Below the pieces are notes generated by a model. That model was not told the origin of the DNA, did no database searches, and saw only the letters and a program-made list of their open reading frames with translations. The translations under genes and the position numbers were made by a program. From contig WRGU01000051.1 in assembly GCA_009787015.1 (NCBI GenBank), forward strand, positions 1-62,813: DNA of 62,813 bases, read 5' to 3'. Each line of letters starts with the position of its first letter. Within the stretch, counting starts at the first letter, position 1. Of the stretch, positions 3,556 through 61,523 are shown in pieces. The DNA comes from Candidatus Saccharimonadota bacterium. GTDB taxonomy: Bacteria; Patescibacteriota; Saccharimonadia; Saccharimonadales; Saccharimonadaceae.

Positions 3556-3628
3556 GTCATCCCGAGCGGAGTCGAGGAATCTTGTTGCGATGTGATGCCA
3601 CCGGCATTTCTCACGCTCGAAATGATAG
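3556..3628. repeat. GTCAT-hairpin repeat pair (family B), inverted units
   Basis: GTCATCCCGAGCGGAGTCGAGGAATCT (3556..3582) and the inverted unit ATTTCTCACGCTCGAAATGATAG (3606..3628), 22 nt after the rplU stop. Confidence 0.7.
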
Positions 3629-9929: not shown

Positions 9930-9930
9930 T

Positions 9931-10016
9931 TAGCGATGCGAACCGCTCTGGAACGACGAACCCTTTAAATCCCTCTACGTCTGGGGTGAGGCGGACAGAG
10001 CGGTGAGAAGGAGCGA
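9931..10016 (+). repeat. Family A imperfect-palindromic element (long subtype)
   Basis: TAGCGATGCGAACCGCTCTGG...CAGAGCGGTGAGAAGGAGCGA; begins 2 nt after the tsf stop. Other copies listed below. Confidence 0.85.
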
Positions 10017-10066
10017 TTTTTGGTGCAAAGTATGCTATAATTTCTATATAAACTAAGGAGGAATTC

Positions 10067-10881: not shown

Positions 10882-10924
10882 AATACATATTGACAAGTCG
10901 TCCAATCTGTGATACACTGTTCTC

Positions 10925-10965
10925 GTGATCGTATAAGGTCATGGGATTGTTAGGTGTTGGGTTTT
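10925..10965 (+). ncRNA. Candidate small RNA (module S, subtype 2, copy 1)
   Basis: TTGACA (10890..10895), 17 nt, TG-A-TACACT (10913..10918). Hairpin CTCGTGATC/GGTCATGGG (10922..10945), tail ATTGTTAGGTGTTGGG. About 88% identical to 55820..55891. Confidence 0.45.
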
Positions 10966-11583: not shown

Positions 11584-12804
11584 ATGAATTTAGAATGGTG
11601 GCAGATTGTCCTGGGCGTGATTGTTGGGTTGATTGCGTTGATGGTTTTGGTGATAATTCACGAATTGGGGCACGCGTGGTTTGCGCGTCGGAACGGGGTT
11701 GAGGTCGAGGAATTCGCTATCGGTTTTCCGCCGCGGGCGAAGATTCTCGGCAAGTATAAGGGGACGTTGATTACGTTGAATTGGCTGTTGCCGCTCGGCG
11801 GATTTTGCAAGATGAAAGGCGAAACCGACGACGCTACCGAAAAAGGTTCGTACGGTGCGGCGAGTTTTTGGGCAAAAACCAAAATTTTGTTCGGCGGCGT
11901 GTTCATGAACCTGATCGCCGCGGCGGTGATTTTCACAATTTTGGCGTGGGTCGGCATGCCGAAAATCCTCGAGAACCAATTCACTATACAAAGCGACACG
12001 GCGACGGAATTGTCACCGGTGTTGGTCGCGACTGTGATCAAGGGAAGCCCGGCGGAAAAGGTATATAAGTCAGACATCCCGTGCCCAGAAGACTTACCAT
12101 GCGGCGTCAGGTTGGACCCAAAATCAGCAACGAGCATAAAAGTTGATGATGAAATCCTTTCGATTAATGGCGAGAAAGTCGAAAGATCGAGCGACGTGCC
12201 GCGACTGACCAAAAAATATGCGGGGCATTGGGCGTTTATCGTTATAAAAACCAACGGCAAGAAAGAAAGCGTTGTCACAGAGTTGAACGCCAAAAATGAA
12301 GGCAAGGGTTACCTCGGCATCTCGACCAGCCAGAGCGAAAAATTCCGCGCCACGTGGTCGGCGCCGATTGTCGGTGTTGTTACGACCTTTCAATTCATTT
12401 GGGAAACGATTGCGGGAATCGGCGGCATGATCGGGAATTTGTTCGGCGGTTTGTGGGGACTAATCACCGGCGGTGGCGCGGACGCGCAACAGCAGATTTC
12501 CAGCGTCGGCGAACAGGTCGCGGGACCGGTCGGCATTCTCGGCGTGATTTTCCCGGCGATGGTGGCGGCGGGATTGACCGAACTTTTATTCTTGATTGGA
12601 CTGATCTCGTTGACTTTGACGGTAATGAACATCTTGCCGATCCCAGGTTTGGACGGCGGACGATGGTATTTGACCGCAGGATTTAAGTTGTTTGGGAAAA
12701 AACTGACCAAGAAAAAAGAAGAAACCATCGTCGGTACAGGCATGTTGATTCTGTTTGGGTTGGTAATTCTGATAACGATCTCTGATATTTGGAAGTTATT
12801 CTGA
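11584..12804 (+). CDS. rseP: Site-2 (M50) zinc metalloprotease RseP-like
   Basis: HELGH, a PDZ-like middle region, NILPIPGLDGG. Confidence 0.85.
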   Translation: MNLEWWQIVLGVIVGLIALMVLVIIHELGHAWFARRNGVEVEEFAIGFPPRAKILGKYKGTLITLNWLLPLGGFCKMKGETDDATEKGSYGAASFWAKTKILFGGVFMNLIAAAVIFTILAWVGMPKILENQFTIQSDTATELSPVLVATVIKGSPAEKVYKSDIPCPEDLPCGVRLDPKSATSIKVDDEILSINGEKVERSSDVPRLTKKYAGHWAFIVIKTNGKKESVVTELNAKNEGKGYLGISTSQSEKFRATWSAPIVGVVTTFQFIWETIAGIGGMIGNLFGGLWGLITGGGADAQQQISSVGEQVAGPVGILGVIFPAMVAAGLTELLFLIGLISLTLTVMNILPIPGLDGGRWYLTAGFKLFGKKLTKKKEETIVGTGMLILFGLVILITISDIWKLF

Positions 12805-13688
12805 TGAAGAAAGTAGTTTCAACGAAAACAGGAAAGACGTCAGTCAAAAAGAAAGTCGTTTTAGCGGAGGTGATTGCTCCGATGGAAAAAGCGCCCATTG
12901 GGAAGAGGATTGCATCGATTGTCGGTTGGTTGCTGTGGATTGCGGCGGCGTTTCTGCTTTCCAATATTATAGTGGCGATAATGTTGTTAATATTGCAACA
13001 CTATCAATTGCTTGATATTAAAAAACTCGACACTACCACGTCGTTTGCTGTTACCGCGGTGATGTATGTATTGATGTTAGTGATAGTATTGTGGTTGCCG
13101 TTGTGGTGGCTGGGACGGAAGAAAGTCATTGCGAGCGAAGCAGAACAACCCGAGAAAAAACCAATTGAACCCCAAAAAACCCGACGTGAAAAAATAAGAT
13201 ATATCCTGGACGCGGTGGGTTTGTCGCGTCGCCCGAAACTAACCGATATTAGTTATTTTTTCGCGGATCTGCCGGTATATTATCTCGTGAATATTGTGGC
13301 GTCGTCTGTCGCCACCTATATTTTGGGTTCGGAAATTATGAATCAGGAACAATCGCTCGGTTTTAGCAAAACCGGCAACGCGTGGTGGCAGTTGGTGATA
13401 ATTTTCATCGCATTAGTTGTCATTGCGCCGCTGTTTGAGGAAATGATTATGCGTGGATTTTTGTTCAAAAAAATCCGAAAAAACGTACCGTTCATCGTCA
13501 CGGCAGTTGTTGTTTCACTATTGTTCGCGCTGGCGCATGGTCAGGTTAATGCTGGCATCATGACTTTCACGCTGTCAATGTTTTGTTGTTGGATCCGCGA
13601 AAAAACCGGCGCGATTTGGGGCGGAATTTTCCTGCACGCAGTGAATAATTTTGTGGCGTTCGCGATATTGTTTTTGTCGAATCATTAG
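12804..13688 (+). CDS. CPBP-family intramembrane glutamic protease
   Basis: EEMIMRGF, FALAHG, FLHAVNNF motifs. ATG overlaps the rseP TGA by 1 nt. Contains a family B unit at 13125..13150. Confidence 0.75.
   Translation: MKKVVSTKTGKTSVKKKVVLAEVIAPMEKAPIGKRIASIVGWLLWIAAAFLLSNIIVAIMLLILQHYQLLDIKKLDTTTSFAVTAVMYVLMLVIVLWLPLWWLGRKKVIASEAEQPEKKPIEPQKTRREKIRYILDAVGLSRRPKLTDISYFFADLPVYYLVNIVASSVATYILGSEIMNQEQSLGFSKTGNAWWQLVIIFIALVVIAPLFEEMIMRGFLFKKIRKNVPFIVTAVVVSLLFALAHGQVNAGIMTFTLSMFCCWIREKTGAIWGGIFLHAVNNFVAFAILFLSNH
13125..13150. repeat. Family B unit embedded in frame in the CPBP protease CDS
   Basis: GTCATTGCGAGCGAAGCAGAACAACC, translated as ..VIASEAEQP.. in a predicted loop. Confidence 0.6.
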
Positions 13689-18114: not shown

Positions 18115-18232
18115 CCAACACTAAATACGCGCGACTTGGTGATCGCTAAAACAGTATATCACACTTATGCTTTTCTGTCAAGTATTTCAGACATAACCAG
18201 CATAAATCAGTGAAATTTGCTATACTAGATGT

Positions 18233-20074: not shown

Positions 20075-20106
20075 GTCATTGCGAAAGTTTTAGCTCGAAG
20101 CAATCT
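20075..20106. repeat. Family B unit
   Basis: GTCATTGCGAAAGTTTTAGCTCGAAGCAATCT, 8 nt after the recO stop. Confidence 0.7.
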
Positions 20107-20985: not shown

Positions 20986-21849
20986 ATGGATGCGATAGAT
21001 TATTGGCGCAAGCAGGAATCGGACAAAGCATTATTCCCCGATATTTTATGGAGCAAGCCCGAGCGGCGCGATGCGGCGGGGCAGCTGGCGATTGTTGGCG
21101 GCAATGTTCACAGTTTCGCGGGCGTGGCGGCGGCATACAAAACGGCGCTCGCGGTCGGTGCGGGATCGGTGCGCGTGATTTTGCCGGATGTGTTAAAAAA
21201 GAAGATGAATACTGTCATTCTGAGCGAGCAACGCGAGTCGAAGAATCTATTCGGCAGTAAGGATTCCTCGACTATGCTCGGAATGACAGACGTGATTTTC
21301 GCACCATCGAACCCCAGCGGCGGGTTGGCGCGCGACGCTCTGGCAGAATTAAATGCGGCGGCGGAATGGGCGGACGCGGTGTTGTTCATCGGCGATTCGG
21401 GTCAGAATTCCGAAACGGCGGCGCTGCTCGAAATCTTCCTGAATCAAAATAAAGGAAGACCGATTATTGTCACGCGCGATGCGATCGACCTTATTAAAAA
21501 TGTCGGCGAAAGTTTATTTAATCGCGCGCCAACGCATTTGATTGTGAGTCTCGGGCAGCTCCAAAAACTTTTCCAAAGCGTGTATTATCCGCGCGTCATC
21601 ACGTTCAGTCAGGGCGTCAGGCAGATTGTCGAAACTTTGCATAAATTCACGATCACATATCCGGTTACGATAACATTATTTCATAACGAAAATTTATTTG
21701 CGGCGTACGACGGGCAAGTCATCACACAACCATTTCACCAACCCTTGCGCGTCTGGAGCGGGGAAATTGCCACTCGCGCCGCGGTTTGGCAGATGTGGAA
21801 TCCCGCTAAACCAACCGAATCTATTGCCACGAGTTGGACCGAACTCTAA
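20986..21849 (+). CDS. YjeF-C/NAD(P)HX-dehydratase-like (ribokinase-fold) protein, possibly degenerate
   Basis: GQLAIVGGNVHSFAGVAAAYKTALAVGAGSVRVILP resembles the dehydratase N-terminal motif. The C-terminal GD-type motif is not evident. Carries an in-frame repeat insertion. Confidence 0.35.
   Translation: MDAIDYWRKQESDKALFPDILWSKPERRDAAGQLAIVGGNVHSFAGVAAAYKTALAVGAGSVRVILPDVLKKKMNTVILSEQRESKNLFGSKDSSTMLGMTDVIFAPSNPSGGLARDALAELNAAAEWADAVLFIGDSGQNSETAALLEIFLNQNKGRPIIVTRDAIDLIKNVGESLFNRAPTHLIVSLGQLQKLFQSVYYPRVITFSQGVRQIVETLHKFTITYPVTITLFHNENLFAAYDGQVITQPFHQPLRVWSGEIATRAAVWQMWNPAKPTESIATSWTEL
21214..21287. repeat. Family B inverted pair embedded in frame in a CDS
   Basis: GTCATTCTGAGCGAGCAACGCGAGTCGAAGAATCT ... 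GGATTCCTCGACTATGCTCGGAATGAC, translated VILSEQRESKNLFGSKDSSTMLGMT. Confidence 0.75.
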
Positions 21850-23268: not shown

Positions 23269-24348
23269 GTGAAATCCGATTTAGAGAAGAGGCTAAAGGT
23301 GTTGGGAGAAGAAGTTGCGGTGGCGCGCGGCAAATTAGATTTGGACGCGAAAAAACGCGAAATCGCGGCGTTGGAATCGGAAATTGCGCGATCGGAAATT
23401 TGGAATAATCCGGATTACGCACAAAGTGTGGCGCGCAAATTGTCGGAATTAAAAAACCAAGTTGATCCGTGGACGGTTTTAACGGCGCAAGTTGCGGATC
23501 TGATTGAACTGCTGGGCATTTCGGACGACGATTTATTGAACGAATTCGATGGGCAAGTTTCAGCGTTAGAATCGGAATTCGCCAAATTACACCAACAATT
23601 ATTATTCACGGGCGCATATGATGCCGGCAACGCGATTTTGCGATTATCGGCGGGTGTGGGCGGCGACGATGCGCAGGATTTCACCGAAATGTTAGAGCGC
23701 ATGTATCTGCGCTGGGCGGAAAAATCGGGTTATAAAGCAACGATTATCGAGCGTTCCGCGGGCGAAACTGCGGGTGTAAAAACTTCGGTCATCGAAATTT
23801 CCGGCGCGTTCGCGTGCGGTAAATTACAATCCGAAAACGGCGTGCATCGATTGGTGCGTTTATCGCCATTTAACGCCGAGAGCCGCGAAACTTCATTCGC
23901 ATTGGTCGAAGTTTTGCCAAAAATCGACGCACCCGACGCAGTAAAAATCGACCCGAAAGACCTGCGCATCGATATTTATCGTTCGGGCGGACACGGCGGA
24001 CAATCTGTTAATACCACTGATTCAGCGGTGCGAATTACGCATTTGCCGACCGGTGTGGTGGTGGCAATTCAAAATGAACGTTCACAACTGCAAAATCGCG
24101 AAAAAGCCATGGAAATCTTGCGCGGCAAATTGGCGGCGTTACAGATGGAACAGCACGTCGAATCCGTCGGTGAACTGCGCGCCGGCGAATCAGCGGCATG
24201 GGGTGCGCAAATTCGCAATTACGTCCTGCACCCCTATAAATTGGTCAAAGATACACGCACAAAATACGAAGAAAAAGATGTCGACGCGGTGTTAAACGGG
24301 GCAATCGACGGTTTTTCGGGCGCATATTTAGAGTGGCGAGCAGAGTAA
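23269..24348 (+). CDS. prfB: Peptide chain release factor 2 (uninterrupted, no +1 frameshift site)
   Basis: SPF tripeptide (RLSPFNA) and GGQ ([12 protein letters not shown]). GTG start 6 nt after TGT-TAAAAT (23257..23262). Confidence 0.9.
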   Translation: MKSDLEKRLKVLGEEVAVARGKLDLDAKKREIAALESEIARSEIWNNPDYAQSVARKLSELKNQVDPWTVLTAQVADLIELLGISDDDLLNEFDGQVSALESEFAKLHQQLLFTGAYDAGNAILRLSAGVGGDDAQDFTEMLERMYLRWAEKSGYKATIIERSAGETAGVKTSVIEISGAFACGKLQSENGVHRLVRLSPFNAESRETSFALVEVLPKIDAPDAVKIDPKDLRIDIYRSGGHGGQSVNTTDSAVRITHLPTGVVVAIQNERSQLQNREKAMEILRGKLAALQMEQHVESVGELRAGESAAWGAQIRNYVLHPYKLVKDTRTKYEEKDVDAVLNGAIDGFSGAYLEWRAE

Positions 24349-24351
24349 GGC

Positions 24352-24434
24352 TAGTGCGCGAACCGTTCTGGAACGACGAACCCTAAACCCCTTTACGTCC
24401 GGGGTGAGGCGGACAGAACGATGAGTATGAGCGG
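24352..24434 (+). repeat. Family A element (long subtype)
   Basis: TAGTGCGCGAACCGTTCTGG...CAGAACGATGAGTATGAGCGG; starts 4 nt after the prfB stop. Confidence 0.85.
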
Positions 24435-24463
24435 GATAAAACAGGGGTGATGACACAAAACGC

Positions 24464-25384: not shown

Positions 25385-25520
25385 ATTCGATATTCCCAAG
25401 ATTTTCAAAAAAAAGCTTGCGTTTATTTTTTCTTTTTGTTAAAATGTTCGTATTGCGAGAAAATAAAAGTTAAAAGTGGTGCGATTTTGCATTATTAATA
25501 GAGGAAGGCTAAGAAAACAA

Positions 25521-27341
25521 ATGGTTGGGGATCGACATAATCCACAGTATCATCGGGTGCTAAGTTCGGCGCCGCGAGTTGCTCATGTGGCCGTTCCGGC
25601 GAAACATGTTGTGCATCATGTTGCACCAGTTCAACAAACCGTTGTCAATAATACAACGATAAGCAAGGTCCAGGCTCAACCCGCGGTACAGCAAGTTGCA
25701 GTTCAAAGTCAACCGCAACAAGTACAACAAGTACAACAAGCACAACCGATGCAACCGCAAAATCCACCGGTCGCGCCGAAGTTTCATCCAGTTATCGAAG
25801 AAAGATCGCCGATCATACATATGGAGGATTTATTTAATATTCCGTCCAAACCGGCGCAAAAAGTCGCCGCACCGGTGCAAAACGCCGGACAAACGAAAGT
25901 TGTACAAGAAGCGATACATGCTGTACAAGTTGCGCAACCTGTACAACCTGTACAGGTCGCACAGTCTGTCGCTCAACCCGTCCAACCCATTCAATACACT
26001 CAACCCGTTCAACGTGTTCAGTATACCCAAGGGACCCAACCGCAACAACAAATAGTCCAGCAGCAAGCAGTTCAGCAGCAACAACAACCGCAACCGACCA
26101 CCGCCATCGTGCAAGCTCAACCGCAGCTGCCACAGGTTCAAGAGCCGCAGCCGTCGACTATCTTGCCATACATTGATGCGCAAACCTATTCGCCATTTAC
26201 CCCGATCAGCAAGGCGGTCGGCGGTGAAGTTAAAAAAGAAAGCGGTCATATTACAAAGTTTGCAAAGCACATCGCGGGCGGCGCCACGAAAACCGCCAAG
26301 CACGTGCATAAGTTAGCAAAACATCTGACGGGTAAGAAAAAATCCGCAGCGCAAACAGCGGTCCAGGCGGCGACGTCGCTCGCGTCGCAATTTACACCCG
26401 GCGTGTCGCCGAGCGCGTTTTTGTCGCCAGCATCGGGCGATGATTCGATTTTTCAATCCGTTGCGCCCGCACCGCGTGTCAATGTGACCGAACAAGTTTT
26501 GGCATCCGCGACATCGCAACAACCGACGGTTCGCGAAACCCCCAACATGCCGACCACGGTGGATAGTTATGGGGCGGTTGCTATTGCTGACGATGGTTTT
26601 CTCGGCAAACTAAGTCGTTTGAGCAACACAAAGATCACTTTTTCGATTAATATTAAGAAGAAGCAGGTTTTCGCGATCCTGCGAACGATTTTAATTCTGA
26701 CGATTTTGGCGATCAGTGGTTATTTGGCGTGGGATACGTGGATGACCAATCGCGAGGCGCACGAAATGTTTTCGAGCCCGACATCGACACTTTCGATCAA
26801 TTCGATCGCGGCGGTTGATGCGGACAATCCGGATGCGCTCGACACCACGTCGGTCAGCAACCAAGCAATCACGACACACAGCGTACCAGCAGATCAGCCG
26901 CGTTACATTTCGATTCCGGCGATTGGCGTTAAAAACGCCCGCGTGTTCAGTGTCGGCGTCAACAGCGACGGTAATATTGACGTACCGAAAAACGTCAATG
27001 ATGCAGCATGGTATGACGGTAGCGCCAAACCTGGACAAAATGGCGCGGTGTTTATCGACGGACATACTTCGTTTAGCCGTTCGTACAAGGGCATATTTGA
27101 TGACTTAGGCAAACTGAACGTTGATGACAAAATCACGATCGAGCGTGGCGACGGCAAAAGTTTCACTTACAAGATCGTCAACAAAGAAACCAAACCTCGC
27201 TCTGAGGTCGATATGAACAAAGCGTTAAACGTCCAAGGCGGCGCGGCGCAAGGGCTGACCTTGATGACTTGCGCCGGTCGATATGATTACCGCAGTGGCA
27301 GCGCATCGGATCGCCTGATCATCTATGCAGTGTTGGAATAG
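25521..27341 (+). CDS. Sortase with about 400-aa Gln/Val/Pro-rich low-complexity N-terminal region
   Basis: C-terminal FIDGHTS, LTLMTCAG, RLIIYA; one TM (ILRTILILTILAISGYLAW). Start at MVGDRH with a GAGGAAGG SD. Confidence 0.75.
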   Translation: MVGDRHNPQYHRVLSSAPRVAHVAVPAKHVVHHVAPVQQTVVNNTTISKVQAQPAVQQVAVQSQPQQVQQVQQAQPMQPQNPPVAPKFHPVIEERSPIIHMEDLFNIPSKPAQKVAAPVQNAGQTKVVQEAIHAVQVAQPVQPVQVAQSVAQPVQPIQYTQPVQRVQYTQGTQPQQQIVQQQAVQQQQQPQPTTAIVQAQPQLPQVQEPQPSTILPYIDAQTYSPFTPISKAVGGEVKKESGHITKFAKHIAGGATKTAKHVHKLAKHLTGKKKSAAQTAVQAATSLASQFTPGVSPSAFLSPASGDDSIFQSVAPAPRVNVTEQVLASATSQQPTVRETPNMPTTVDSYGAVAIADDGFLGKLSRLSNTKITFSINIKKKQVFAILRTILILTILAISGYLAWDTWMTNREAHEMFSSPTSTLSINSIAAVDADNPDALDTTSVSNQAITTHSVPADQPRYISIPAIGVKNARVFSVGVNSDGNIDVPKNVNDAAWYDGSAKPGQNGAVFIDGHTSFSRSYKGIFDDLGKLNVDDKITIERGDGKSFTYKIVNKETKPRSEVDMNKALNVQGGAAQGLTLMTCAGRYDYRSGSASDRLIIYAVLE

Positions 27342-27404
27342 GGAAGCAGAGCGCCTCTTTTGGGCGCACTTGACAAATTAAAGTGCTTGTGCTATACTGT
27401 CTAC

Positions 27405-27440
27405 ACGCGACCACCATATCGCGTGTGTTTAGTGTTGGCA
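27405..27440 (+). ncRNA. Candidate small/antisense RNA (module S, subtype 1, copy 1)
   Basis: TTGACA (27370..27375), 17 nt, TGTGC-TATACT (27393..27398). Perfect 8-bp hairpin ACACGCGA/TCGCGTGT (27403..27426), tail GTTTAGTGTTGG. No same-strand gene downstream; it runs into the ftsX 3' end. Confidence 0.45.
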
Positions 27441-29377: not shown

Positions 29378-30310
29378 TGTAGAATAGTGTTTGCAAAATA
29401 ACAATTAACTCTACAGAAAGGAGACAGGTATAATGTCTTACTCACATCTTACCACAGAAAATCGTGTGGTCATAGAAACTTTAATTCGCGAGGGTTTGTC
29501 TCATCGCCGAATAGCAAGACGATTAGGGTGCAGTCACAGTACTATCTCGGCGGAAGTACGGAGGAATTCGAATAGTCATGGGAACTATCGCTGGTATTAT
29601 GCCAGCAAAGAAACTGCTAGCAGAAGGCGAATTGCCAATCAGCGGTTTAGGGTGCTGTCTACCAACAAGGATATGTCCAACAATAACTCTCGGCTAACAC
29701 GCATAGTAATAGAAGGACTAAGAAAGAACTGGAGTCCAGAGCAGATTTCTGGGAGGTTTAAGAGGACCACTGGCGTAGTAATTGCTGTTCAAACCATATA
29801 TGACTGGATCTATCAATCGACATTAGACCGTCACACGTTGAGCATCGCTCCAGGATAGGTCATTTTGAGGGAGATACTAGGAATCTGTCCATGGACGAAC
29901 AAAAATCACTGCGCAAGACCCTAGCCCTCAAATTTGCAGATGCTGCCAGTCGGCTATTTAACGAGCAGATACGAAAGAAATACCAGAAAACCCTAACCCT
30001 CGACAACGGCAGCGAAATGAGCGGTTTTGAATGGATTGAAAGACAAACGAGACTCAGCGTGTTCTTTGCACACGCCTACCATTCATGGGAGAGAGGAACG
30101 AATGAAAACACTAACGGGCTGCTGCGATTCTACTTTCCCAAGAAGATGACGTTTACATACTTAACAGACGAGATAGTTGACAAAGCGGTCGAAGAGATCA
30201 ATAATAGACCACGTAAACGCCTAGGCTACAGAACACCAGCAGAAGTCATGAAGCGGAATGGTGTGCTGGTTGGGGGTGGAATGTAGGGCGTGGCGCTTGA
30301 AAACACAATC
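29378..30310 (+). mobile_element. Decayed IS30-family insertion sequence (about 0.93 kb)
   Basis: Transposase remnants flanked by imperfect inverted repeats: rc(29383..29396) is TTGCAAACACTATT versus 30297..30310 TTGAAAACACAATC, 11/14 match. Confidence 0.55.
29433..30286 (+). pseudogene. IS30-family DDE transposase, frameshifted with internal deletions
   Basis: N-terminal HTH (LSHRRIARRLGCSHSTISAEVRRN), WSPEQISG. After a frame change: RPSHVEHRSRIGHFEGDT, TLDNGSEM, ERGTNENTNGLLRFYFPK. Stop at 29856..29858; the spacings between D, D and E are shortened. Confidence 0.75.
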
Positions 30311-30334
30311 AAAATGCTGTATAATGATAGTATC

Positions 30335-31504
30335 ATGGGTAGAAATGTCTTTTCGCGGCGAAATCTGAAACATCGGGTGATGGGATTGGTTTCGGTGATT
30401 TTGATAGCGGCGTTTATGATGCAGATTTTGCCGTTGCCGCAAATTTCGTCCGCGCTCACGAACGAGGAATACGATGCGAAGATTAAGGAATTACAGGGTC
30501 AGGTTGATGGTTATCGCAACAGGGCGGCAGAACTGGCGCTACAATCCGAAACTTTGAATGGCGCAATTGCGCAGCTACAACTCCAACAGGACGAGATCCA
30601 GGCGGAAATCGACCTTAATAATGCCAAACTCGATAAATTAAATGCGGAAATTACTGAAAACGAAATCAAGATGAAGAAGCAGAGCGAAGCGCTCGCCAGA
30701 TCGATCGCCGCCGCATATATTACCGGTCAACCATCGTCATTGGAGGTTTTGGCGAATAGCAACACCTTGAACGATTACATCAATAGCAAGTCGCAAGAAG
30801 AAGCGTTGCAAGCGCAATTAAATAGTTTAACTAATCAAATTAACAGAATTAAAAAAGAGTTGCAGGTCCAGAAGTACAAAGTCGAAACGATTTTGCAGGA
30901 TCAAACATCGCGTCGCGATCAAATCGCGGCAAGCAAGCAACGGCAGCAAGAATTATTATCCCAAACCAAGGGGCAGGAAGCGGAATTTCAGAGGATGGTC
31001 AAGGATAACAACCGCGAAATTTCCCGATTGCGCGCCGAGCAGGAAGCCGCCAACCGTGCGGCGGGTATTGGCATCGGTGTGGTGGCGGGCGATCCTAATC
31101 GCGGCGGGTATCCGGATTATTTGAACAATGCGCCGCAAGATGCGTTGGTTGATCCGTGGGGAATGTATAATCGCGAGTGCGTGTCGTACACGGCGTGGAA
31201 AGTCTATCAATCCTATGGCAATATGCCGTATTGGGGCGGGCATGGCAATGCTAATCAGTGGGTGGGCAACGCTCGTGCCGTCGGTATTCCAACCGGTTCG
31301 ACGCCGAAAGTTGGTTCGGTCGGTGCGACCTCTGTCGGTGTTTACGGTCACGTGGTTTGGGTCGAGGCGGTCAGCGGCGATGGCAGCAAGGTTTACGTAT
31401 CGCAATACAACGTGCCAATCAACGGCAGATGGGGCATGTACAGCGAACAATGGATCGACGCATCAAAATACACTTATATTTATTTTGGCGAGTGGAATCG
31501 CTAA
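30335..31504 (+). CDS. Secreted coiled-coil + CHAP-domain peptidoglycan hydrolase (PcsB-like architecture)
   Basis: Signal/TM, about 230-aa heptad-rich region, C-terminal CHAP (NRECVSYTAWKV.., GHVVWVEAV). Confidence 0.75.
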   Translation: MGRNVFSRRNLKHRVMGLVSVILIAAFMMQILPLPQISSALTNEEYDAKIKELQGQVDGYRNRAAELALQSETLNGAIAQLQLQQDEIQAEIDLNNAKLDKLNAEITENEIKMKKQSEALARSIAAAYITGQPSSLEVLANSNTLNDYINSKSQEEALQAQLNSLTNQINRIKKELQVQKYKVETILQDQTSRRDQIAASKQRQQELLSQTKGQEAEFQRMVKDNNREISRLRAEQEAANRAAGIGIGVVAGDPNRGGYPDYLNNAPQDALVDPWGMYNRECVSYTAWKVYQSYGNMPYWGGHGNANQWVGNARAVGIPTGSTPKVGSVGATSVGVYGHVVWVEAVSGDGSKVYVSQYNVPINGRWGMYSEQWIDASKYTYIYFGEWNR

Positions 31505-31512
31505 GTTACTAT

Positions 31513-31590
31513 AGCCGCTCCTACTCACCGTTTCGTCCCACCTCACTCACAGAGCAAGAGGTCGGTGGTCCGAAACGGTTCGAGTCGCTA
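31513..31590 (-). repeat. Family A element (short subtype)
   Basis: AGCCGCTCCTACTCACCGTTTCGTCC..CACAGAGCAAGAGGTCGG..CGAAACGGTTCGAGTCGCTA; close reverse-complement match to 48336..48411. Confidence 0.85.
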
Positions 31591-31633
31591 GGCGTTTTTC
31601 AGTTTTATTTATGTTTATGCTAAAATAGTTGTC

Positions 31634-33513: not shown

Positions 33514-33585
33514 GTCATTGCGAACGGAGTGAAGCGATCTACTTGCGATCCCGAAACGAGATCGCTTCGTTTCACTCGCAATGAC
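33514..33585. repeat. Family B inverted pair, possibly a bidirectional terminator
   Basis: GTCATTGCGAACGGAGTGAAGCGATCT ... GAGATCGCTTCGTTTCACTCGCAATGAC followed by a T-run, between convergent genes. Confidence 0.75.
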
Positions 33586-39349: not shown

Positions 39350-40401
39350 GCGTTGGTTTTTAATTCGCTTTCGCGTTTTTGCAAATTCTCAATTAAATCG
39401 TCGATTTCGCCGTTCATCGCCGCCGGAATGTTGGAACGGGAATAACTGATGCGGTGGTCGGTGATGCGATCCTGTGGAAAATTGTAAGTGCGGATTTTTT
39501 CGCTGCGATCGCCCGAACCGATCAAGGATTGCCGCGTGGCGGACGCTGCCGCCTGTTCTTCCTCGATTTTCTTTTCGAGCAAGCGCGAACGCAGCACGTT
39601 CATCGCCTTTTCGCGGTTTTGGAGTTGCGAACGTTCGTCCTGCATGGCGACCACAATGCCGGTCGGAATGTGTGTGATGCGCACCGCGGAATCGGTCGTA
39701 TTTACAGATTGTCCGCCGTGCCCGCCCGAACGATAAATATCGATGCGCAGGTCTTCTGGTTTGATTTCGATGTCTTTTTCCTCCGCCTCCGGCAAAACCG
39801 CGACGGTGACGGTCGAGGTGTGAATTCGCCCCTGCGATTCGGTGACGGGAACGCGTTGGACGCGGTGGACGCCCGATTCGAATTTTAATTGACGATAGGG
39901 TTCGCTGCCTTTGACTGAAAAAATAACTTCCTTTAATCCGCCGGCATCATTGATATTTTCGTTCAGAATTTCCGTTTTCAAACGATGGTTTTCGGCGTAA
40001 CGCAAATACATACGCAGGAGTTCCGCCGCAAATAGGGAAGCCTCATCGCCGCCCGCACCGGCGCGAATTTCCATGATGATGTTTTTATCATCATTCGGAT
40101 CGCGCGGAATCAACATTTCGAGAATTTCCGCTTCAATCTGCGCGATCTTTGTTTCTAAATCGGGGATTTCAAGTGCTGCCAGTTCCGCCAACTCGTCATC
40201 GCCATTTGCCAATTCTCGCGCCTCCGACAACTGTCTTTGCGCAGTTTCGATGTCCGCGGATTTCTGTAATAATGTTTCAATTTCGCTCAAACGGCGCGTT
40301 TTGGTCGCAAATTCTGGGTCAGAATAAGCATCGGGTCGCGCCAAAAAATCCGCCAATTCCGCACGTTCGGTTCGCAAGTTTTCTAAATTCAAATTGTTCA
40401 T
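39346..40401 (-). CDS. prfA: Peptide chain release factor 1
   Basis: PVT tripeptide ([14 protein letters not shown]) and GGQ. Start at MNNLNLEN; -10 TACAAT (40414..40409) lies 7 nt upstream. Confidence 0.9.
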
Positions 40402-40428
40402 GCAATATATTGTAACATAAAAGGTCAT

Positions 40429-40503
40429 GTCATTGCGAGCGGAGCGAAGCAATCCACCGCAAGTTCAGACGAGATTGCTTTGGACTAAAGTCCTCGCAAT
40501 GAC
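40429..40503. repeat. Family B inverted pair
   Basis: GTCATTGCGAGCGGAGCGAAGCAATCC ... GAGATTGCTTTGGACTAAAGTCCTCGCAATGAC. Confidence 0.8.
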
Positions 40504-45825: not shown

Positions 45826-47316
45826 ATGGGAGTAGTAGTAATAAATGGTAAAGGTTATGATTCGCAGACGGGTCTGCCGATGGAACAGACGCTGAGTTTT
45901 GCGGTCGAACGTTCGGTAAAGGAAAAAGTTGCGACGGTCGCATCGAGGAAAAAAACTCGACGCACGTCGAAGCAAGAGCGCCTCGCTGCCGCCGTGGCGC
46001 GCGAATTTGAGGACGATGCCGTCGCCGTTCGCGAAATAGCCATCGAAAGGGGAGAAGTGCGCGAACCAGAAACCACCGTTGCTGCCAGTTGGGTTGAAAG
46101 ATTTTTATCGGGCGAAGAAGCCGAATTCGCACCGGTCGAACTGAAATACGCTACTCCGGAATGGACGCATGAACATGTTATTGGCAAGCAGTTTGAGACC
46201 GTTCGGAAAGTCGAAGTCGCCGCGCCGAGCTGGATTTCGAATTATCTCGATGGTAATGATCCGATTGAAATCGAACCTATTATCGAGGAATTTATCAGCG
46301 ATCCCGAACCTGCACAGCCAGAAGTTCAAGGTTGGATACAGAGTTACCTCGACGGCGAAACTCCAATCGAAGCCGTAGAGGTCGGATTGGGCGATCACAG
46401 GAAATCTGTCGAAATTATGCAAAAATATTCCCGAGATTTTGCACCGACTCGTCTCGAACCGCATTCTATTGGTCGTGCGCCCGAGCGCTCGGAGACCCTC
46501 AACCGTGATTTTGTGAAAAAACCAATTGACACCGAAAAAGTCAATGTAGTGCGCAAACATGCGCAAGTTGCCACGCACCCCGACGTTTTCCGTTTCGATC
46601 GCGCGCCAATCATTCACGAAATTACCGCACCTGATCCGGTGAAATTACCACAATCGGTTGAGGATAAATTATTGAGCGAATATCTGAACGCGCCGTTCCA
46701 GCCAATTGCCCAAAAATCGCCAGTTGTCGAGCAAGCGCCAGCCGCAGTTGAGCAACCGAGTAGCGATGCCATCAAAAACGCCTTGATCAACGAACAAATT
46801 GTCGCGCCGGTCGATTTTAAGAGCCGACGCCGCGCCGAAAAAGAGGCTGACAAGAAGTACGGCAAACGCCGCTTCTTCCGCGCACCGACCATCATTACGG
46901 CGGCGCTAGCAGTCGTGGTTTTGGGCGGATACTTTACCTATATCAACATGCCGGCAATTTCAATCCGCGTTGCCGCGAACCAAGCGGGCATTGATGCCCA
47001 CGTCCCATACACCGCCAACGGCTATTCGATCGACGGACCGGTGGCATACGCCGCGGGTCAGATCCGAATCAACTATAAATCCAACGGCGACGCGGCGGGT
47101 TATTCGGTCGTCCAACAGGAAAGCGATTGGTCGGACAGCGACATCGTCCGTGGTTTAGTGCGTGGTGAAAAATACGATATGATGAACGCCGGCGGCACGA
47201 CCGTTTATGTCTATGGCAATAACGCTTCCTGGATCAAGGGCAACATCCTGTACACCGTCAACGGCAACGAATTATTGGGCAGCGATCAGATCATGAAAAT
47301 CGCCGAAAGTGTGTAG
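45826..47316 (+). CDS. Single-pass membrane protein with triplicated W-x3-L-x-G-E motif and DUF4367-like extracellular domain
   Basis: WVERFLSGEE / WISNYLDGND / WIQSYLDGET; TM IITAALAVVVLGGYF; C-terminus ..WIKGNILYTVNGNELLGSDQIMKIAESV. SD AGGAGG. Confidence 0.5.
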   Translation: MGVVVINGKGYDSQTGLPMEQTLSFAVERSVKEKVATVASRKKTRRTSKQERLAAAVAREFEDDAVAVREIAIERGEVREPETTVAASWVERFLSGEEAEFAPVELKYATPEWTHEHVIGKQFETVRKVEVAAPSWISNYLDGNDPIEIEPIIEEFISDPEPAQPEVQGWIQSYLDGETPIEAVEVGLGDHRKSVEIMQKYSRDFAPTRLEPHSIGRAPERSETLNRDFVKKPIDTEKVNVVRKHAQVATHPDVFRFDRAPIIHEITAPDPVKLPQSVEDKLLSEYLNAPFQPIAQKSPVVEQAPAAVEQPSSDAIKNALINEQIVAPVDFKSRRRAEKEADKKYGKRRFFRAPTIITAALAVVVLGGYFTYINMPAISIRVAANQAGIDAHVPYTANGYSIDGPVAYAAGQIRINYKSNGDAAGYSVVQQESDWSDSDIVRGLVRGEKYDMMNAGGTTVYVYGNNASWIKGNILYTVNGNELLGSDQIMKIAESV

Positions 47317-47334
47317 TTGTGTTATTATATTCCT

Positions 47335-48846
47335 ATGACAAAAGTTAGAACACGTTTTGCGCCGAGTCCGACAGGATTCGCACATATTGGAAATTTGCGA
47401 ACAGCATTGTTTGCGTATTTGACTGCTAAACATTTCGGCGGAGATTTTATTTTACGCCTCGAGGATACGGATAAAAATCGCGAAGTCGACGGGGCGGACG
47501 AATATATTTTAAGTGCAGTTAAAACTCTAGGTTTTATTTACGACGAGGGTCCAGACATCGGCGGAAAATTTGCGCCGTACCGCCAGAGCGAACGTCTCGA
47601 CCACTATAAAAAATGGGCGTTGGTGTTGGTAGACAAGGGTCGCGCATTTGCCGATCCGTACACGCCCGAACAAATCCAAAAATTCCGCGACGAAGCGGCG
47701 GCGAACAAAAAAGCCTTTCGCTATCGCGATTTCCGCCCAACGAATCCGCCGGCCTGGGACGGAACTATGCCGCTGCGTTTCAAATCCGAACCGCGCGATT
47801 ACGCGTGGCGCGACGAAGTTATGGGCGATTTGTCGGCGGGCGCGGACGCGATTGATGATTTTGTTTTGATTAAATCGGACGGTTTTCCAACCTATAATTT
47901 TGCGCACATTATCGATGATTTAGAAATGGAAATCACACATATTATTCGCGGTCAGGAATTTATTTCGTCGACGCCGAATTATTTGAATCTGTACGAAGCG
48001 TTGGAAATCGAACACCCGATTTTTGCCACCATGCCACATATTTTGAACGAAACTGGTAATAAAAAACTCGGCAAACGCGACGGCGCGAAAGATGCCATGG
48101 AATATCTGCGCGACGGTATTTTGGTCGAGGCGCTCGATAATTTCATCGCGTCCTGTGGTTGGAACGACGGCACAGAACAGGAGATTTTTTCGATGGACGA
48201 GTTGATCGAAAAATTCACGCTTGACCGCGTTGGTCGATCAGGTGCGCGTTTCGATCCGAATCGGTTGGTTTGGATGAATGGTCAGTGGATTAAGAGACTG
48301 TCGGTTGGCGAATTGTTTGAACGAACGAATTGCGTTAGCGACGCGAACCGTTCTGGATTGCCGACCTCTTGCTCTGTGAGCGAGGCAAGACAGAACGGTG
48401 AGGAAGAGCGGTCTTTTTGGGGCGAGAATGGTGCGAACACAACTGACAACAAGAAAAAACAAGTTTTGGCAGTAGTGCAAGATCGGCTAAAAACTCTGGC
48501 GGATTTGCCGGCGTTAACCGAATACTTTTTTGCGCGACCTGAGCCGAATTGGGCGATGGTGGATGATAACAAACAATTAAAAAAACTGACGCGCGGAGAA
48601 CAGGTCGAGTTATTGTGCGCTGCGGTGGAAAAATTGGAACATACTGAATGGGATTTTGATAAATTACAGATGAGTTTGAACGAATTATTGGAAATAACTG
48701 AATCAAAACCGCCGATTTTATTCGGGATAATTCGCTTTGCGTTGACCTGGGCGCCGTTTAGCCCAGGGCTGCCGGAAACGATGGTGACGCTCGGGAAAGA
48801 TGAAACCCTGGCGCGGATTAGTACGGCGGTTGAGAGCGCAAAATGA
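47335..48846 (+). CDS. gltX: Glutamyl-tRNA synthetase carrying an in-frame repeat-element insertion
   Basis: RFAPSPTGFAHIGNLRTA (HIGH), KLGKRDG (KMSKS-type). Leaderless: TGT-TATTAT (47323..47328) + 6 nt. Confidence 0.9.
   Translation: MTKVRTRFAPSPTGFAHIGNLRTALFAYLTAKHFGGDFILRLEDTDKNREVDGADEYILSAVKTLGFIYDEGPDIGGKFAPYRQSERLDHYKKWALVLVDKGRAFADPYTPEQIQKFRDEAAANKKAFRYRDFRPTNPPAWDGTMPLRFKSEPRDYAWRDEVMGDLSAGADAIDDFVLIKSDGFPTYNFAHIIDDLEMEITHIIRGQEFISSTPNYLNLYEALEIEHPIFATMPHILNETGNKKLGKRDGAKDAMEYLRDGILVEALDNFIASCGWNDGTEQEIFSMDELIEKFTLDRVGRSGARFDPNRLVWMNGQWIKRLSVGELFERTNCVSDANRSGLPTSCSVSEARQNGEEERSFWGENGANTTDNKKKQVLAVVQDRLKTLADLPALTEYFFARPEPNWAMVDDNKQLKKLTRGEQVELLCAAVEKLEHTEWDFDKLQMSLNELLEITESKPPILFGIIRFALTWAPFSPGLPETMVTLGKDETLARISTAVESAK
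48336..48411 (+). repeat. Family A element (short subtype) inside the gltX CDS
   Basis: TAGCGACGCGAACCGTTCTGGATTGCCGACCTCTTGCTCTGTGAGCGAGGCAAGACAGAACGGTGAGGAAGAGCGG, translated ..SDANRSGLPTSCSVSEARQNGEEERS.. Confidence 0.85.
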
Positions 48847-48886
48847 TAGGTTTTATCTCCCGCTTCATCTATGTTACAATATTCGT

Positions 48887-49963
48887 ATGAAGAAAGTAAC
48901 TTGGTCGGGGAAAGATAAGCAAAAGCGGGGCAGAAGGGTAAAGACCGCAAGCGTTGTGATGGTGGTCACGATATTGATCGGGATTGCGTCGCTATCCGCG
49001 TGGATTTTTTTGCGGCGTGATCCGGCGAAAAATGATAAATCCGGCGATAAAAATACGACGGTTGAACAAAAATTTTATTCACCGCTAACAGGGCGGAGAG
49101 TGGCGAACGAGGAAATTACCCGGCGTCCGGTGGTCGCGGTGATGATCGAAAATTCGTTTGATGCGCGACCACAGTCGGGTTTGGTCGATGCGGGCGTCGT
49201 GTTCGAGGCAATCGCCGAGGGCGGCATTACGCGTTTTGTGGCGCTGTATCAGGAATCCGAACCGGAGTTTATCGGTCCAATCCGTTCGGCGCGTCCTTAT
49301 TATTTGGATTGGGTGGCGGCATTCGATCCGGCAATCATTCATGTCGGCGGCAGCGAGGAGGCTTTGGATATGTTGCGCGGCAACTGGTATGGTTTGAATA
49401 TCGACGAAATCGACGACAGCGTGATTTTTCGCGTCAATGATCGTTATGCGCCGCACGATGCCTATACGAATTTCAAGAAATATTCCGCATATTTGAATAA
49501 GAAAAACAAAACTTCATCAGATTTCGTTGGCTGGGCGCGACAGGACGGAAAGGCTCGGAACGATGTCGACGAATTGTCCGCAAAAAGCATCGACGTCGGT
49601 ATTTCCGTCGGTGGATTTGTGGTGCATTACGATTACGATGTGGCGACCAATAGCTATAAACGCAGTGTCGGCGGCGAACCGCACAACGATCGCGAAAAGG
49701 GTCGAATTTCGCCCGACGTGGTTATTGCATTACGATCAACTTACGGTTTATTGGAGGACGGTTTGCATTCCAAATACCAAACTATCGGTGAAAATGAAGT
49801 TTATATTTTTCAAAATGGCAATGTGATCAAGGGAACTTGGCAAAAAGATGGCGTAAAATCACAAATCAAGTTTTTCGATGAAAGCGGTACAGAAATCAAA
49901 CTAAATCGCGGTCAAGTTTGGATCACGGCGATAGGTCAAAACGAAAGCATTTCATGGAAATAG
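48887..49963 (+). CDS. DUF3048 (YerB-like) secreted/lipoprotein
   Basis: RPVVAVMIENSFDARPQSGL, EGGITRFVALY. Leaderless: TGT-TACAAT (48875..48880) + 6 nt. Confidence 0.7.
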   Translation: MKKVTWSGKDKQKRGRRVKTASVVMVVTILIGIASLSAWIFLRRDPAKNDKSGDKNTTVEQKFYSPLTGRRVANEEITRRPVVAVMIENSFDARPQSGLVDAGVVFEAIAEGGITRFVALYQESEPEFIGPIRSARPYYLDWVAAFDPAIIHVGGSEEALDMLRGNWYGLNIDEIDDSVIFRVNDRYAPHDAYTNFKKYSAYLNKKNKTSSDFVGWARQDGKARNDVDELSAKSIDVGISVGGFVVHYDYDVATNSYKRSVGGEPHNDREKGRISPDVVIALRSTYGLLEDGLHSKYQTIGENEVYIFQNGNVIKGTWQKDGVKSQIKFFDESGTEIKLNRGQVWITAIGQNESISWK

Positions 49964-53601: not shown

Positions 53602-54309
53602 ATGACGAAAATTTTATTAGTTGAAGATGATAGAAGTTTACGCGAAATATACGGCGTACGCTTGCTCGCGGAGGGTTACGACATCGTGTCGGCGAGCGAC
53701 GGTGAAACGGCGTTGGCGACAGCAATTCGCGAGAAACCAGATTTGATTATCAGCGACGTAATGATGCCGAAGATGTCGGGATTTGAAATGTTGGATTTGT
53801 TGCATGGCAATGAATCGACGAAAGATATCAAAGTTATTATGATGACGGCATTAAGTTCCGATCAGCAACGCGAACGTGGCGAAAGTTTAGGTGCGGATCG
53901 TTACTTAGTCAAATCGCAGGTCGGGATCGAGGATTTGGTCACCGCCACCCACGAAGTTTTAGGCGACAAGGAAGAAGCCAGCGCTGCACCGACGATGTTG
54001 GTGCAATTCCAATCGCCAATCAACCCGCCCGCCGCGGTCACACCGAGCAGCGTGGCAAACGTTGAAGCTCCCGCCATGCCCGCCGAACCGATGCAGGTAC
54101 AAACCGTAACCAATCCGAACATTGTTGCGCCAGTCCCGACCGCTCAACCAATCCAACCAGATTCCATGACGGTAGCGGTACAGGTCAACCCGCCGTCCGC
54201 ACCCGCACCACAATCCGCACCCGCACCCGACCCGAGACTCAACGTTGAAAGTTTGGCGGGTCAAGCCCCAGCCGTTAATCCGATTTTCCCGCAACAACCG
54301 ATGCAGTAG
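53602..54309 (+). CDS. Response regulator: receiver domain + about 110-aa Pro/Ala/Gln-rich disordered tail, no output domain
   Basis: LLVEDD, DLIISDVMMPKMSG, IMMTALS, DRYLVKS; tail ..PPAAVTPSSV..APAPQSAPAPDP.. Promoter: TTGAAT, 17 nt, TATAAT (53573..53578). Confidence 0.8.
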   Translation: MTKILLVEDDRSLREIYGVRLLAEGYDIVSASDGETALATAIREKPDLIISDVMMPKMSGFEMLDLLHGNESTKDIKVIMMTALSSDQQRERGESLGADRYLVKSQVGIEDLVTATHEVLGDKEEASAAPTMLVQFQSPINPPAAVTPSSVANVEAPAMPAEPMQVQTVTNPNIVAPVPTAQPIQPDSMTVAVQVNPPSAPAPQSAPAPDPRLNVESLAGQAPAVNPIFPQQPMQ

Positions 54310-54319
54310 CAACTAAATC

Positions 54320-54406
54320 TCGCTCCTTCTCACCGTTTCGTCCCGTCTCACTCCGGACGTAGAGGGGTTTAAAGAGGTCGGCGGAACGAAAACGGTTCGC
54401 GTCGCT
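54320..54406 (-). repeat. Family A element (long subtype)
   Basis: TCGCTCCTTCTCACCGTTTCGTCCCGTCTCACTCCGGACGTAGAGGGGTTTAAAGAGGTCGGCGGAACGAAAACGGTTCGCGTCGCT; 11 nt after the stop. Confidence 0.85.
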
Positions 54407-54450
54407 CCCGTACAGTATGTAAAACACATCAAATGTGCTAATATATTTTC

Positions 54451-55836: not shown

Positions 55837-55854
55837 GTGTGATACACTGTTCTC

Positions 55855-55938
55855 GTGATCGGGTAAGGTCATGGGATTGTTTGCTGTTGGGAAAAATAGG
55901 CGCACACGAAACGCCAGCCTAAACGGCTTGCGTTTTTT
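55855..55938 (+). ncRNA. Candidate about 84-nt small RNA (module S, subtype 2, copy 2) with its own promoter and terminator
   Basis: TTGACA (55820..55825), 17 nt, TG-A-TACACT (55843..55848). Hairpin 55852..55875, tail ATTGTTTGCTGTTGGG, terminator stem 55910..55934 + T6. Confidence 0.55.
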
Positions 55939-60798: not shown

Positions 60799-61266
60799 AT
60801 GGCGAAAGGAAAAATTCATTTGACGCGCCATGGCAAGCGCGAGTTAGAAGAGGAGTTGGAGCAGTTGATTGCGACGCGTCCCGAAATGGCGCAACGCATT
60901 GCGACGGCGCGCGAATTTGGCGACCTCTCCGAAAATGCCGAATATTCGGCGGCGCGCGAACTCCAAAATCGCACCGAATCACGCATTCGTGAAATTCAAA
61001 CTATTTTAGAAAATTGCAGCATCATCAAAAGCACCAGCGACGGCAAAGTCGGGTTAGGCGATACCGTCATTGTCACCGATGGTGCCAAAAAACGCGAATT
61101 CAAAGTTGTCAGCGCCGTCGAAGCCGACCCGGGCAACGGCAAAATCAGCGATAAATCCCCCCTCGGCGAGCAATTAATCGGCAAAAAAGTCGGCGACCAA
61201 GTTTCCATCGCCGCCCCGCGTTCCAAAAAAGTCTATGAAATCGTCGAAATAAATCACGATTTGTAG
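60799..61266 (+). CDS. greA: Transcription elongation factor GreA
   Basis: RELEEELEQL.., AREFGDLSENAEYSAARE, C-terminal KISDKSPLGEQLIGKKVGD. Confidence 0.9.
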   Translation: MAKGKIHLTRHGKRELEEELEQLIATRPEMAQRIATAREFGDLSENAEYSAARELQNRTESRIREIQTILENCSIIKSTSDGKVGLGDTVIVTDGAKKREFKVVSAVEADPGNGKISDKSPLGEQLIGKKVGDQVSIAAPRSKKVYEIVEINHDL

Positions 61267-61277: not shown

Positions 61278-61304
61278 GTCACTGCGAACGTAGTAAAGCA
61301 ATCT
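61278..61304. repeat. Family B unit
   Basis: GTCACTGCGAACGTAGTAAAGCAATCT, 12 nt after the greA stop. Confidence 0.65.
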
Positions 61305-61312
61305 CATACCTC

Positions 61313-61399
61313 CCGCTCCTTCTCACCGTTTCGTCCCGCCTCACTCCGGACGTAGAGGGATTAAAGAGGTCGGCGGAACGAAAACGGTTCGCGTCGCTA
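61313..61399 (-). repeat. Family A element (long subtype)
   Basis: CCGCTCCTTCTCACCGTTTCGTCCCGCCTCACTCCGGACGTAGAGGGATTAAAGAGGTCGGCGGAACGAAAACGGTTCGCGTCGCTA. Confidence 0.85.
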
Positions 61400-61423
61400 A
61401 CGTGGCAAGGGCAGGAGTGAGAC

Positions 61424-61465
61424 AAAAAAAGACAACACCAAACACATACGATATGGTGGTCGATT
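61424..61465 (-). ncRNA. Candidate about 42-nt small RNA (module S, subtype 1, copy 2)
   Basis: Minus strand: TTGACA (61500..61495), 17 nt, TGTGC-TATACT (61477..61472), then GTCTGCAATCGACCACCATATCGTATGTGTTTGGTGTTGTC + T7. About 85% identical to 27370..27440. No same-strand gene downstream. Confidence 0.45.
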
Positions 61466-61523
61466 GCAGACAGTATAGCACAAGCGTTTTAGTTTGTCAA
61501 TATGTAAATCTTATGCTATACTT

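Follow-up and report, generated by a model that had tools for sequence, protein, structure and literature searches.

A palindromic repeat inserted in frame in the glutamyl-tRNA synthetase gene of a Saccharibacteria genome, at a position of recurrent insertion

We analyzed a 62,813-nt stretch of DNA from a Candidatus Saccharimonadota bacterium (assembly GCA_009787015.1, contig WRGU01000051.1, positions 1 to 62,813 of the forward strand; hereafter the window) and found that its gltX gene, which encodes glutamyl-tRNA synthetase (GluRS), carries in frame one copy of a short palindromic repeat, here called family A. We consider it highly probable (about 0.85) that a selfish palindrome inserted in gltX and survives there as a translated, disordered loop in a turn that tolerates it. 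Inserts at exactly the same position, mostly unrelated to one another, occur in the GluRS of related Saccharibacteria, and an Nnr-like gene of the window carries in frame a palindrome of another family (family B) at a site that is also hit recurrently.

The insertion in gltX and its product

The gltX open reading frame (ORF) lies at 47317-48846 on the forward strand and has 509 codons counted from TTG 47317; gene callers place the start at ATG 47335, giving a protein of 503 residues to which the database entry P0083 is 100% identical. Pfam tRNA-synt_1c (PF00749) matches ORF residues 9-319 (E 3.6e-79) and Anticodon_2 (PF19269) residues 375-504 (E 8.3e-24), and the motifs HIGN and KLGKR fall in invariant alignment columns. 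The best sequence matches among solved structures in the PDB are bacterial GluRS (E 6e-83), as are the structures retrieved by Foldseek with the model described below (template modelling score, TM, about 0.75-0.83). The product therefore has what defines a bacterial GluRS, namely the class I catalytic domain, the helical anticodon-binding domain and motifs of the HIGH/KMSKS type. The best-matching GluRS loci are labelled Candidatus Saccharibacteria (TM7) or other metagenome-assembled genomes of the candidate phyla radiation (CPR) throughout; the isolate labels of some relatives, Nt197P3, Co191P4 and Emb289P3, presumably denote termite hindgut samples.

For comparison we used the 120 best GluRS matches from a large protein collection (proteins, Pxxxx) and an alignment of the window with 80 orthologous gltX loci (loci, Lxxx; P0085 is encoded by L084, P0108 by L004, P0086 by L090 and P0126 by L091). 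Relative to the nearest orthologs, the window gene has 81 extra nt, which amount to 27 stop-free codons in frame, fall within 48328-48414 (residues N338-S366) and comprise 3 nt in addition to the 78-nt element (codons V340-R365). The window protein has the 29 residues N338-S366 (peptide of the insert region, NCVSDANRSGLPTSCSVSEARQNGEEERS) where the conserved ...LFER-T and FWG are separated by 2-3 residues in L001, L003, L005 and each of the 46 more distant CPR loci. The sister sequences in the neighbor-joining tree, P0084 and P0085 (476 and 479 residues), lack the segment and have two residues there, while being 77-78% identical to the window GluRS by BLASTP and 82-83% over core columns. The empty site in L084 reads GAT CGC TGT / AAA AAC / TTC TGG GGT, that is, DRC-KN-FWG as compared with ERT-(29 residues)-FWG in the window; at 78% amino-acid identity, the filled site and the empty one have diverged too far for a target-site duplication to be resolved. 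About 95 of the 120 homologues have no insert, and the same segment was found in no ortholog.

The segment is also reproduced by independent assemblies. The identical GluRS protein is encoded on at least six contigs, and the gltX DNA is 100% identical in four assemblies from different samples (ERZ27257309, ERZ27257311, JGI 3300002119 and Logan SRR5247074), with flanks in these ENA, JGI and Logan assemblies 99.99-100% identical to the window. Together with the absence from relatives, this shows that the family A element in gltX is an insertion, and neither ancestral sequence nor an assembly artefact.

The insert is most likely translated as part of GluRS: since exactly 81 nt were added and no stop codon occurs in the gltX frame, the ribosome most likely reads through it. 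In this frame three sister short copies of the repeat, the one at 31.5 kb in the window and two from a metagenomic locus (L082b and L082c), have TAG where the gltX copy has GAA, so that ...NGE(stop)ER in the sister copies is compared with ...NGEEER in gltX. GAA in place of TAG is the pattern that selection for ribosomal read-through would give. All of the inserts that relatives carry at this GluRS site, 18-340 nt or 6 to about 114 residues long, likewise keep the frame, and those of P0136, P0139 and P0188 are homologous and have diverged as protein, with in-frame indels.

We modelled the structure with AlphaFold2 (AF2), run on the 503-residue P0083 with an 81-sequence alignment (ORF residue = model residue + 6). 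The model has a mean predicted local distance difference test score (pLDDT) of 90.6 and a predicted TM score (pTM) of 0.87, with pLDDT above 90 outside the insert. The only segment with pLDDT below 50 is ORF residues 341-363 (model 335-357), which are all coil and are flanked by helices at 330-338 and 370-373 (model 324-332, and 364-367 and 371-384). HMMER aligns ORF residues 10-338 to residues 2-332 of Thermus thermophilus GluRS, whose anticodon-binding domain comprises residues 323-468 (PMC3927822), so that the insert would lie about 10 residues into this domain, in the turn after its first helix. The extra residues are thus predicted, most likely, to be a flexible loop on the surface, joining the first and the second helix of the anticodon-binding domain and leaving the fold and the catalytic motifs intact, and such a loop is presumably harmless.

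The original prediction, which was made from the letters of the window, had placed a palindromic element at 48336-48411 within an open GluRS frame, quoted its peptide and assigned it to the C-terminal, anticodon-binding half. Alignment and a profile search confirm the element, the 509-codon ORF is intact and the peptide correct, and the position in the anticodon-binding domain agrees with that given above. As a check the prediction had further proposed an alignment with close relatives, to see whether about 25 residues are lineage-specific and map to a surface loop; the nearest relatives lack the segment, and the AF2 model predicts a disordered inter-helix loop. The refutation it had named, orthologs of unrelated lineages carrying the same segment, did not materialise.

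Family A repeats and their hairpin

Six copies of family A were found in the window (nhmmer E 3e-19 to 1e-26), with element sizes of 78-95 nt. The copy inside gltX (48334-48411, forward strand; profile match 48332-48415, E 2.8e-20) and an intergenic one at 31511-31593 on the reverse strand, 7-9 nt past the stop codon of a CHAP-domain gene (30290-31504), belong to a short subtype, in which about 11 nt of the centre are missing. The four long copies lie at 9926-10021 (forward), abutting or overlapping the stop codon of tsf (9321-9929); at 24350-24437 (forward), 2-5 nt past the stop of a release-factor gene (23269-24348); at 54315-54411 (reverse), 3-6 nt past the stop of a response-regulator gene (53602-54309); and at 61310-61405 (reverse), downstream of greA (60799-61266) and directly after a family B arm at 61278-61306. 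Five of the six window copies hence begin 0-10 nt past a gene stop codon or a neighbouring repeat arm, and the intergenic ones occur in either orientation to the gene, two on the forward and three on the reverse strand. This placement 3' of genes suggests a role at mRNA 3' ends or an avoidance of downstream promoters.

The gltX copy is 82-86% identical in DNA over 76-78 nt to intergenic copies of the window genome and of another genome. Its 42-nt core had no chance match in 100 dinucleotide shuffles. The hairpin core at 48347-48399 (forward strand) has 16-nt arms at 48347-48362 and 48384-48399 that are 88% complementary; the minimum free energy of the hairpin is -36.5 kcal/mol (z = -3.5), and the fold is a two-step hairpin with two nested stems. 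Pairing was examined in an alignment of 11 copies of family A, of which the window supplied six and one metagenome genome five. Standard pairs occupy 92% of the cells, as compared with 36-44% when the 3' partner is slid, and 8 of the 14 stem pairs have compensatory changes on both sides, which none of 500 shuffles matched. This excess of pairing and the compensatory changes show that the repeat and its hairpin are real.

Some statements of the original prediction on this family stand only in part. It had described the gltX copy as nearly the exact reverse complement of the copy at 31513-31590: the complementarity between 48336-48411 (forward) and 31515-31590 (reverse) is non-random but amounts to 82% over 76 nt, and hence is not nearly exact. 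That the similarity might vanish on proper alignment had been named as a refutation, and this did not occur, as both the alignment and nhmmer uphold the family. The short subtype had been said to be stop-free in the gltX frame, which is true of the gltX copy and not of the 31.5-kb copy or the two metagenomic short copies with their TAG. The similar opposite-strand peptides noticed in both short copies of the window do exist, but this similarity is trivial because it follows from that of the DNA.

Among metagenome contigs, the family A pattern turned up only on three contigs of metagenome Ga0268262, which carry the five further copies and belong to a different genome that has only the repeats in common with the window. 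All five are non-coding, so that the gltX copy is the only intragenic one among the 11. One copy in the metagenomic locus L082 (13028-13115) lies in a 702-codon open frame and was considered as a coding insertion; it was rejected, as it is upstream of the likely start codon and signal peptide (MLVFSLFLATPAHA). The profile found no family A copy in the 80 gltX neighbourhoods of other species, indicating that the family is narrow, and the family A pattern was absent from the viral contigs searched. Rfam gave nothing at the element, neither with the whole window at the gathering threshold nor with 48250-48500 at E<=1, and reported four tRNAs elsewhere. We also considered that the element acts as an intragenic terminator and rejected this, as a terminator and promoter scan of 47000-49200 gave no terminator-like site. 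Outside its stems family A has asymmetric ends; most copies have GACG (complementary to CGTC) 3 nt ahead of stem 1, and GTAG is present in some only. No transposase was seen among the genes called at 37-59 kb, and no genome survey aimed at transposases was made.

Recurrent inserts in GluRS and in an Nnr-like gene

At exactly the position of the window's insert, 23 of the 120 best GluRS homologues have at least four extra residues. These represent at least 10 different inserts in related Saccharibacteria, and most of them are unrelated to one another. We ordered the sequences by the unweighted pair group method with arithmetic mean (UPGMA), built a neighbor-joining tree and counted insert changes by Fitch parsimony; insert-bearing and insert-free GluRS are interleaved in the tree, which requires at least 13 steps of gain or loss. 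The only other internal insert of six or more residues in the 120 proteins is in P0126, at about residue 439, and is a family B palindrome. The gene of this protein (locus L091) has family B palindromes twice, at the hot spot and, deeper in the anticodon-binding domain, at L091 2433-2537.

Most of the inserts examined at the DNA level are palindromes: hairpins are formed by those of L002, L004, L006, L085, L090, L091 (two) and L092, with z from -2.7 to -8.0. The insert of L007 has no hairpin (z = +0.2), consistent with an old insertion that has decayed. Family B consists of GTCATTGCGAGCG...CGCTCGCAATGAC palindromes, which are intergenic in the window (3556-3626, 20075-20106, 33514-33585, 40429-40503 and the arm at 61278-61306) and are also found in the loci L004, L085, L090 and L091. 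The insert arm of L004 shares 97% identity with the family B copy of the window at 40427-40456. At the GluRS site family B is translated in one frame as VIAS.AKQS...APRDD in P0087, P0108 and P0126, and in a second frame as SLRAQRSNP...SARDDK in P0086. At the hot spot, at least two recognisable families have inserted, and they did so in different frames and species. The last of these proteins, P0086 (GCA_025998715.1, BNWI01000001.1), has a family B insert in a GluRS 72% identical to that of the window and bears the NCBI label "Alphaproteobacteria bacterium", which is probably a taxonomic misassignment because its neighbouring genes (sortase, PEGA, DUF3048) match the gene order of Saccharibacteria.

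The Nnr-like gene is the second case in the window of an in-frame palindrome at a recurrently hit site. The ORF at 20986-21849 has no Pfam match, and its homologues are labelled NAD(P)H-hydrate repair Nnr-like by JGI. It contains at 21214-21287 (forward strand) a family B palindrome (GTCATTCTGAGCG...GCTCGGAATGAC), which is in frame and encodes VILSEQRESKNLFGSKDSSTMLGMT. The 22-residue segment is missing in most of the 120 best homologues (261-268 residues), and different inserts are present at the same site in P0204, P0207, P0208, P0210, P0214 and P0264; that of P0207 reads ...PELVSGS...NKFGMT.

Other repeats were noted in the window. A single family B arm (GTCATTGCGAGCGAAGCAGAACAACCC) at 13125-13151 is in frame in an Rce1/CPBP-like ORF (12789-13688), where it encodes KKVIASEAEQ between predicted membrane segments, and it may be the decayed half of an old insertion. 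Repeat families adjoin one another in intergenic DNA, as at 61278-61405 and at L082 3422-3748. A further short repeat family occurs at 10908-10961, 55838-55891 and 18141-18191 and also in the metagenome loci L081 and L082, and another at 27370-27437 and 61433-61500. Overlapping palindromes centred on TGTACA at 25899-25964, within a 621-codon ORF (25476-27341), could be another intragenic palindromic segment. A putative surface protein (ORF 90-1412) has a (DP)n linker, encoded by a (GATCCN)n tract at 369-440; its homologue in L082 has a shorter PDPDPD tract. A 178-nt inverted repeat (23945-24122 and 39590-39767, 81% identity) was rejected as a mobile repeat, as it reflects two paralogous release-factor genes, with PCRF and RF-1 domains, that lie on opposite strands.

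Explanations and comparison with known systems

We propose that family A is a selfish, non-autonomous hairpin repeat whose usual place, in this Saccharibacteria genome presumably of termite-gut type, is directly 3' of genes. It would be mobilised in trans by some transposase and insert widely, and selection would purge nearly all intragenic insertions, so that those remaining would be in frame, free of stops and situated in length-tolerant turns. The gltX copy would be such a survivor: the ribosome would read through it and produce a GluRS with 27 extra residues as a disordered loop, tolerated because the inter-helix turn accommodates extra length. Likewise, the GluRS hot spot would reflect selective tolerance rather than targeting.

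A different origin of the hot spot would be targeting of palindromes to this site, perhaps through the structure of the DNA or RNA or through a hairpin already there, or selection for the hairpin or the loop itself, for example as a pause at the domain boundary, in mRNA processing or stability, or as an interaction surface. The 13 or more gains and losses at one position, with a single other insert of comparable size in 120 proteins, would fit this, as would the origin of the inserts from different families and reading frames, the location about 10 residues past the boundary of the catalytic and anticodon-binding domains, the intact hairpin of the gltX copy, the clustering of repeat families side by side between genes and the single recurrent site in the Nnr-like protein. 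Yet the insert sequences are mutually unrelated and some, like that of L007, have no hairpin potential; the closest relatives thrive insert-free; no DNA motif is common to the gltX and Nnr-like sites; no terminator is predicted; and the modelled loop is disordered and its peptide not conserved. We therefore regard targeting or such selection as quite unlikely.

Far less probable is that the segment is missing from the mature enzyme by removal from the mRNA, translational bypassing or protein excision, the first and last of which the original prediction had offered as an alternative. Translational bypassing occurs in T4 gene 60 and in the byp elements of yeast mitochondria, mobile bypassed hairpins exist elsewhere, and a stable hairpin does lie amid this essential ORF. 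However, nothing in the data supports removal. There are exactly 27 stop-free codons where sister copies have TAG, a pattern that makes sense only for a translated insert; Rfam gives no match, not even at E<=1; 27 residues are far below the size of an intein (at least about 130 residues) and contain no intein blocks; no matched take-off and landing codons and no stop after any candidate take-off codon were found; and the unrelated inserts of relatives are all in frame, with those of P0136, P0139 and P0188 having diverged as protein. The gltX insert accordingly falls outside the intein, intron and bypass classes. Scarcely credible, finally, is that no mobile insertion took place, the segment being either an ancestral hypervariable loop that resembles the repeat by chance or an assembly chimera caused by the repeat. 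Loop length does vary in the clade and repeats can mislead metagenome assemblers, but the identity to intergenic copies with the same compensated hairpin, the absence of the segment from the sister sequences in flanks colinear with orthologs, and the identical DNA in ENA, JGI and Logan assemblies of different samples contradict both versions.

Several points weigh against a selfish insertion that is translated and merely tolerated. That a single turn of a 480-residue protein has received at least 10 distinct inserts exceeds what simple tolerance would obviously predict. Many insert-bearing GluRS have a TLG or TLS prefix in common, so that some insertions may be nested in an older small expansion of the loop. 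The in-frame-only picture is partly a matter of ascertainment, because frameshifted genes would not score at full length, and the case for translation is drawn solely from the frame and the stop-codon status. A transposase, a target-site duplication and terminal inverted repeats are not definable for family A, and its mobility is deduced only from its copy number and distribution.

A broader proposal, which we consider rather unlikely, is that inter-helix turns (around residue 338 of GluRS and the one Nnr-like site) are landing pads for unrelated palindrome families in insect-gut Saccharibacteria. If so, either targeting would be directed by structure or the inserted hairpin or loop would be selected for, and CPR bacteria would systematically and convergently gain new protein segments from palindromic repeats.

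What is new here is an in-frame palindromic insertion in Saccharibacteria that resembles the Rickettsia palindromic elements (RPEs), the recurrent hot spot in GluRS, and the second case in the Nnr-like gene. For RPEs, we know of no unrelated palindrome families found repeatedly at one codon position across species. In the literature on CPR, Patescibacteria and Saccharibacteria we found no relevant report of a palindromic element, a repetitive extragenic palindromic (REP) sequence or a MITE (miniature inverted-repeat transposable element), which is no proof of novelty. The recurrent insertions in GluRS serve as a natural experiment, from which one may learn where in a protein insertions can be tolerated and how new segments arise from repeats. 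Such inserts inflate protein lengths and make CPR proteins that are not related look alike through spurious repeat peptides; phylogenomics and structure prediction should mask them.

Other palindromes provide partial parallels. REPs are extragenic palindromes of 20-40 nt in superfamilies tagged by GTAG/CGTC (PMC3733652). Like REPs and bacterial interspersed mosaic elements (BIMEs), family A is an imperfect palindrome located 3' of genes in either orientation, with compensatory changes and at high density (six per 63 kb). Unlike REPs, it forms a compound hairpin (two nested stems, about 80-95 nt), has one coding copy and lacks a clear terminal GTAG/CGTC tag; its size is thus outside the REP range, while the extragenic 3'-end position is found for all window copies but that in gltX. 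In-frame fusions of MITEs have been described for Coxiella QMITE1 (PMC5896051), enterobacterial ERIC and RU (PMC2759123) and Anabaena (cited in PMC10969869). Family A likewise is a small non-autonomous repeat with an occasional in-frame fusion to a host ORF, but neither terminal inverted repeats nor a target-site duplication nor a parent insertion sequence is established for it, and its host gene encodes an essential aminoacyl-tRNA synthetase. Family B has the same intergenic niche, the same in-frame behaviour (in the Nnr-like gene and in the GluRS of L004, L090 and L091) and the same GluRS site as family A, but differs in sequence, occurs across several species and is translated in two or more frames (VIAS..AKQS and SLRAQRSNP).

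The closest parallel is with RPEs, described by Ogata et al. (2000, Science 290:347) as summarised in PMC10969869, according to which 44 integrations in R. conorii often form in-frame fusions that seem compatible with the fold. Like them, family A consists of multi-copy palindromes that are intergenic and also occur in frame and stop-free in housekeeping genes, for family A with one copy, in gltX, which would add a peptide segment at a position that may be compatible with the fold, in a host-dependent bacterium with a small genome. Its elements measure 78-95 nt as compared with about 100-150 nt for RPEs, and the host phylum is Saccharibacteria/CPR, the distinction from RPE-1 to RPE-10 being one of lineage and not of sequence comparison. 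The RPE-like colonisation put forward in the original prediction is supported, and the analogy is apt because the similarity to the repeat survives alignment, orthologs lack the segment, the insert is in frame and stop-free, and AF2 places it in a disordered loop; the prediction had identified the element and overlooked the hot spot, the second in-frame gene and the TAG of the intergenic short copy. In-frame palindromes are best documented in Rickettsia, with scattered cases elsewhere, and Saccharibacteria would be a second, unrelated lineage of host-dependent bacteria with small genomes; this agrees with the view that selfish hairpins persist inside genes because purifying selection is weak in genomes of this kind. 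By analogy, family A appears to behave like an RPE without being a member of an RPE family.

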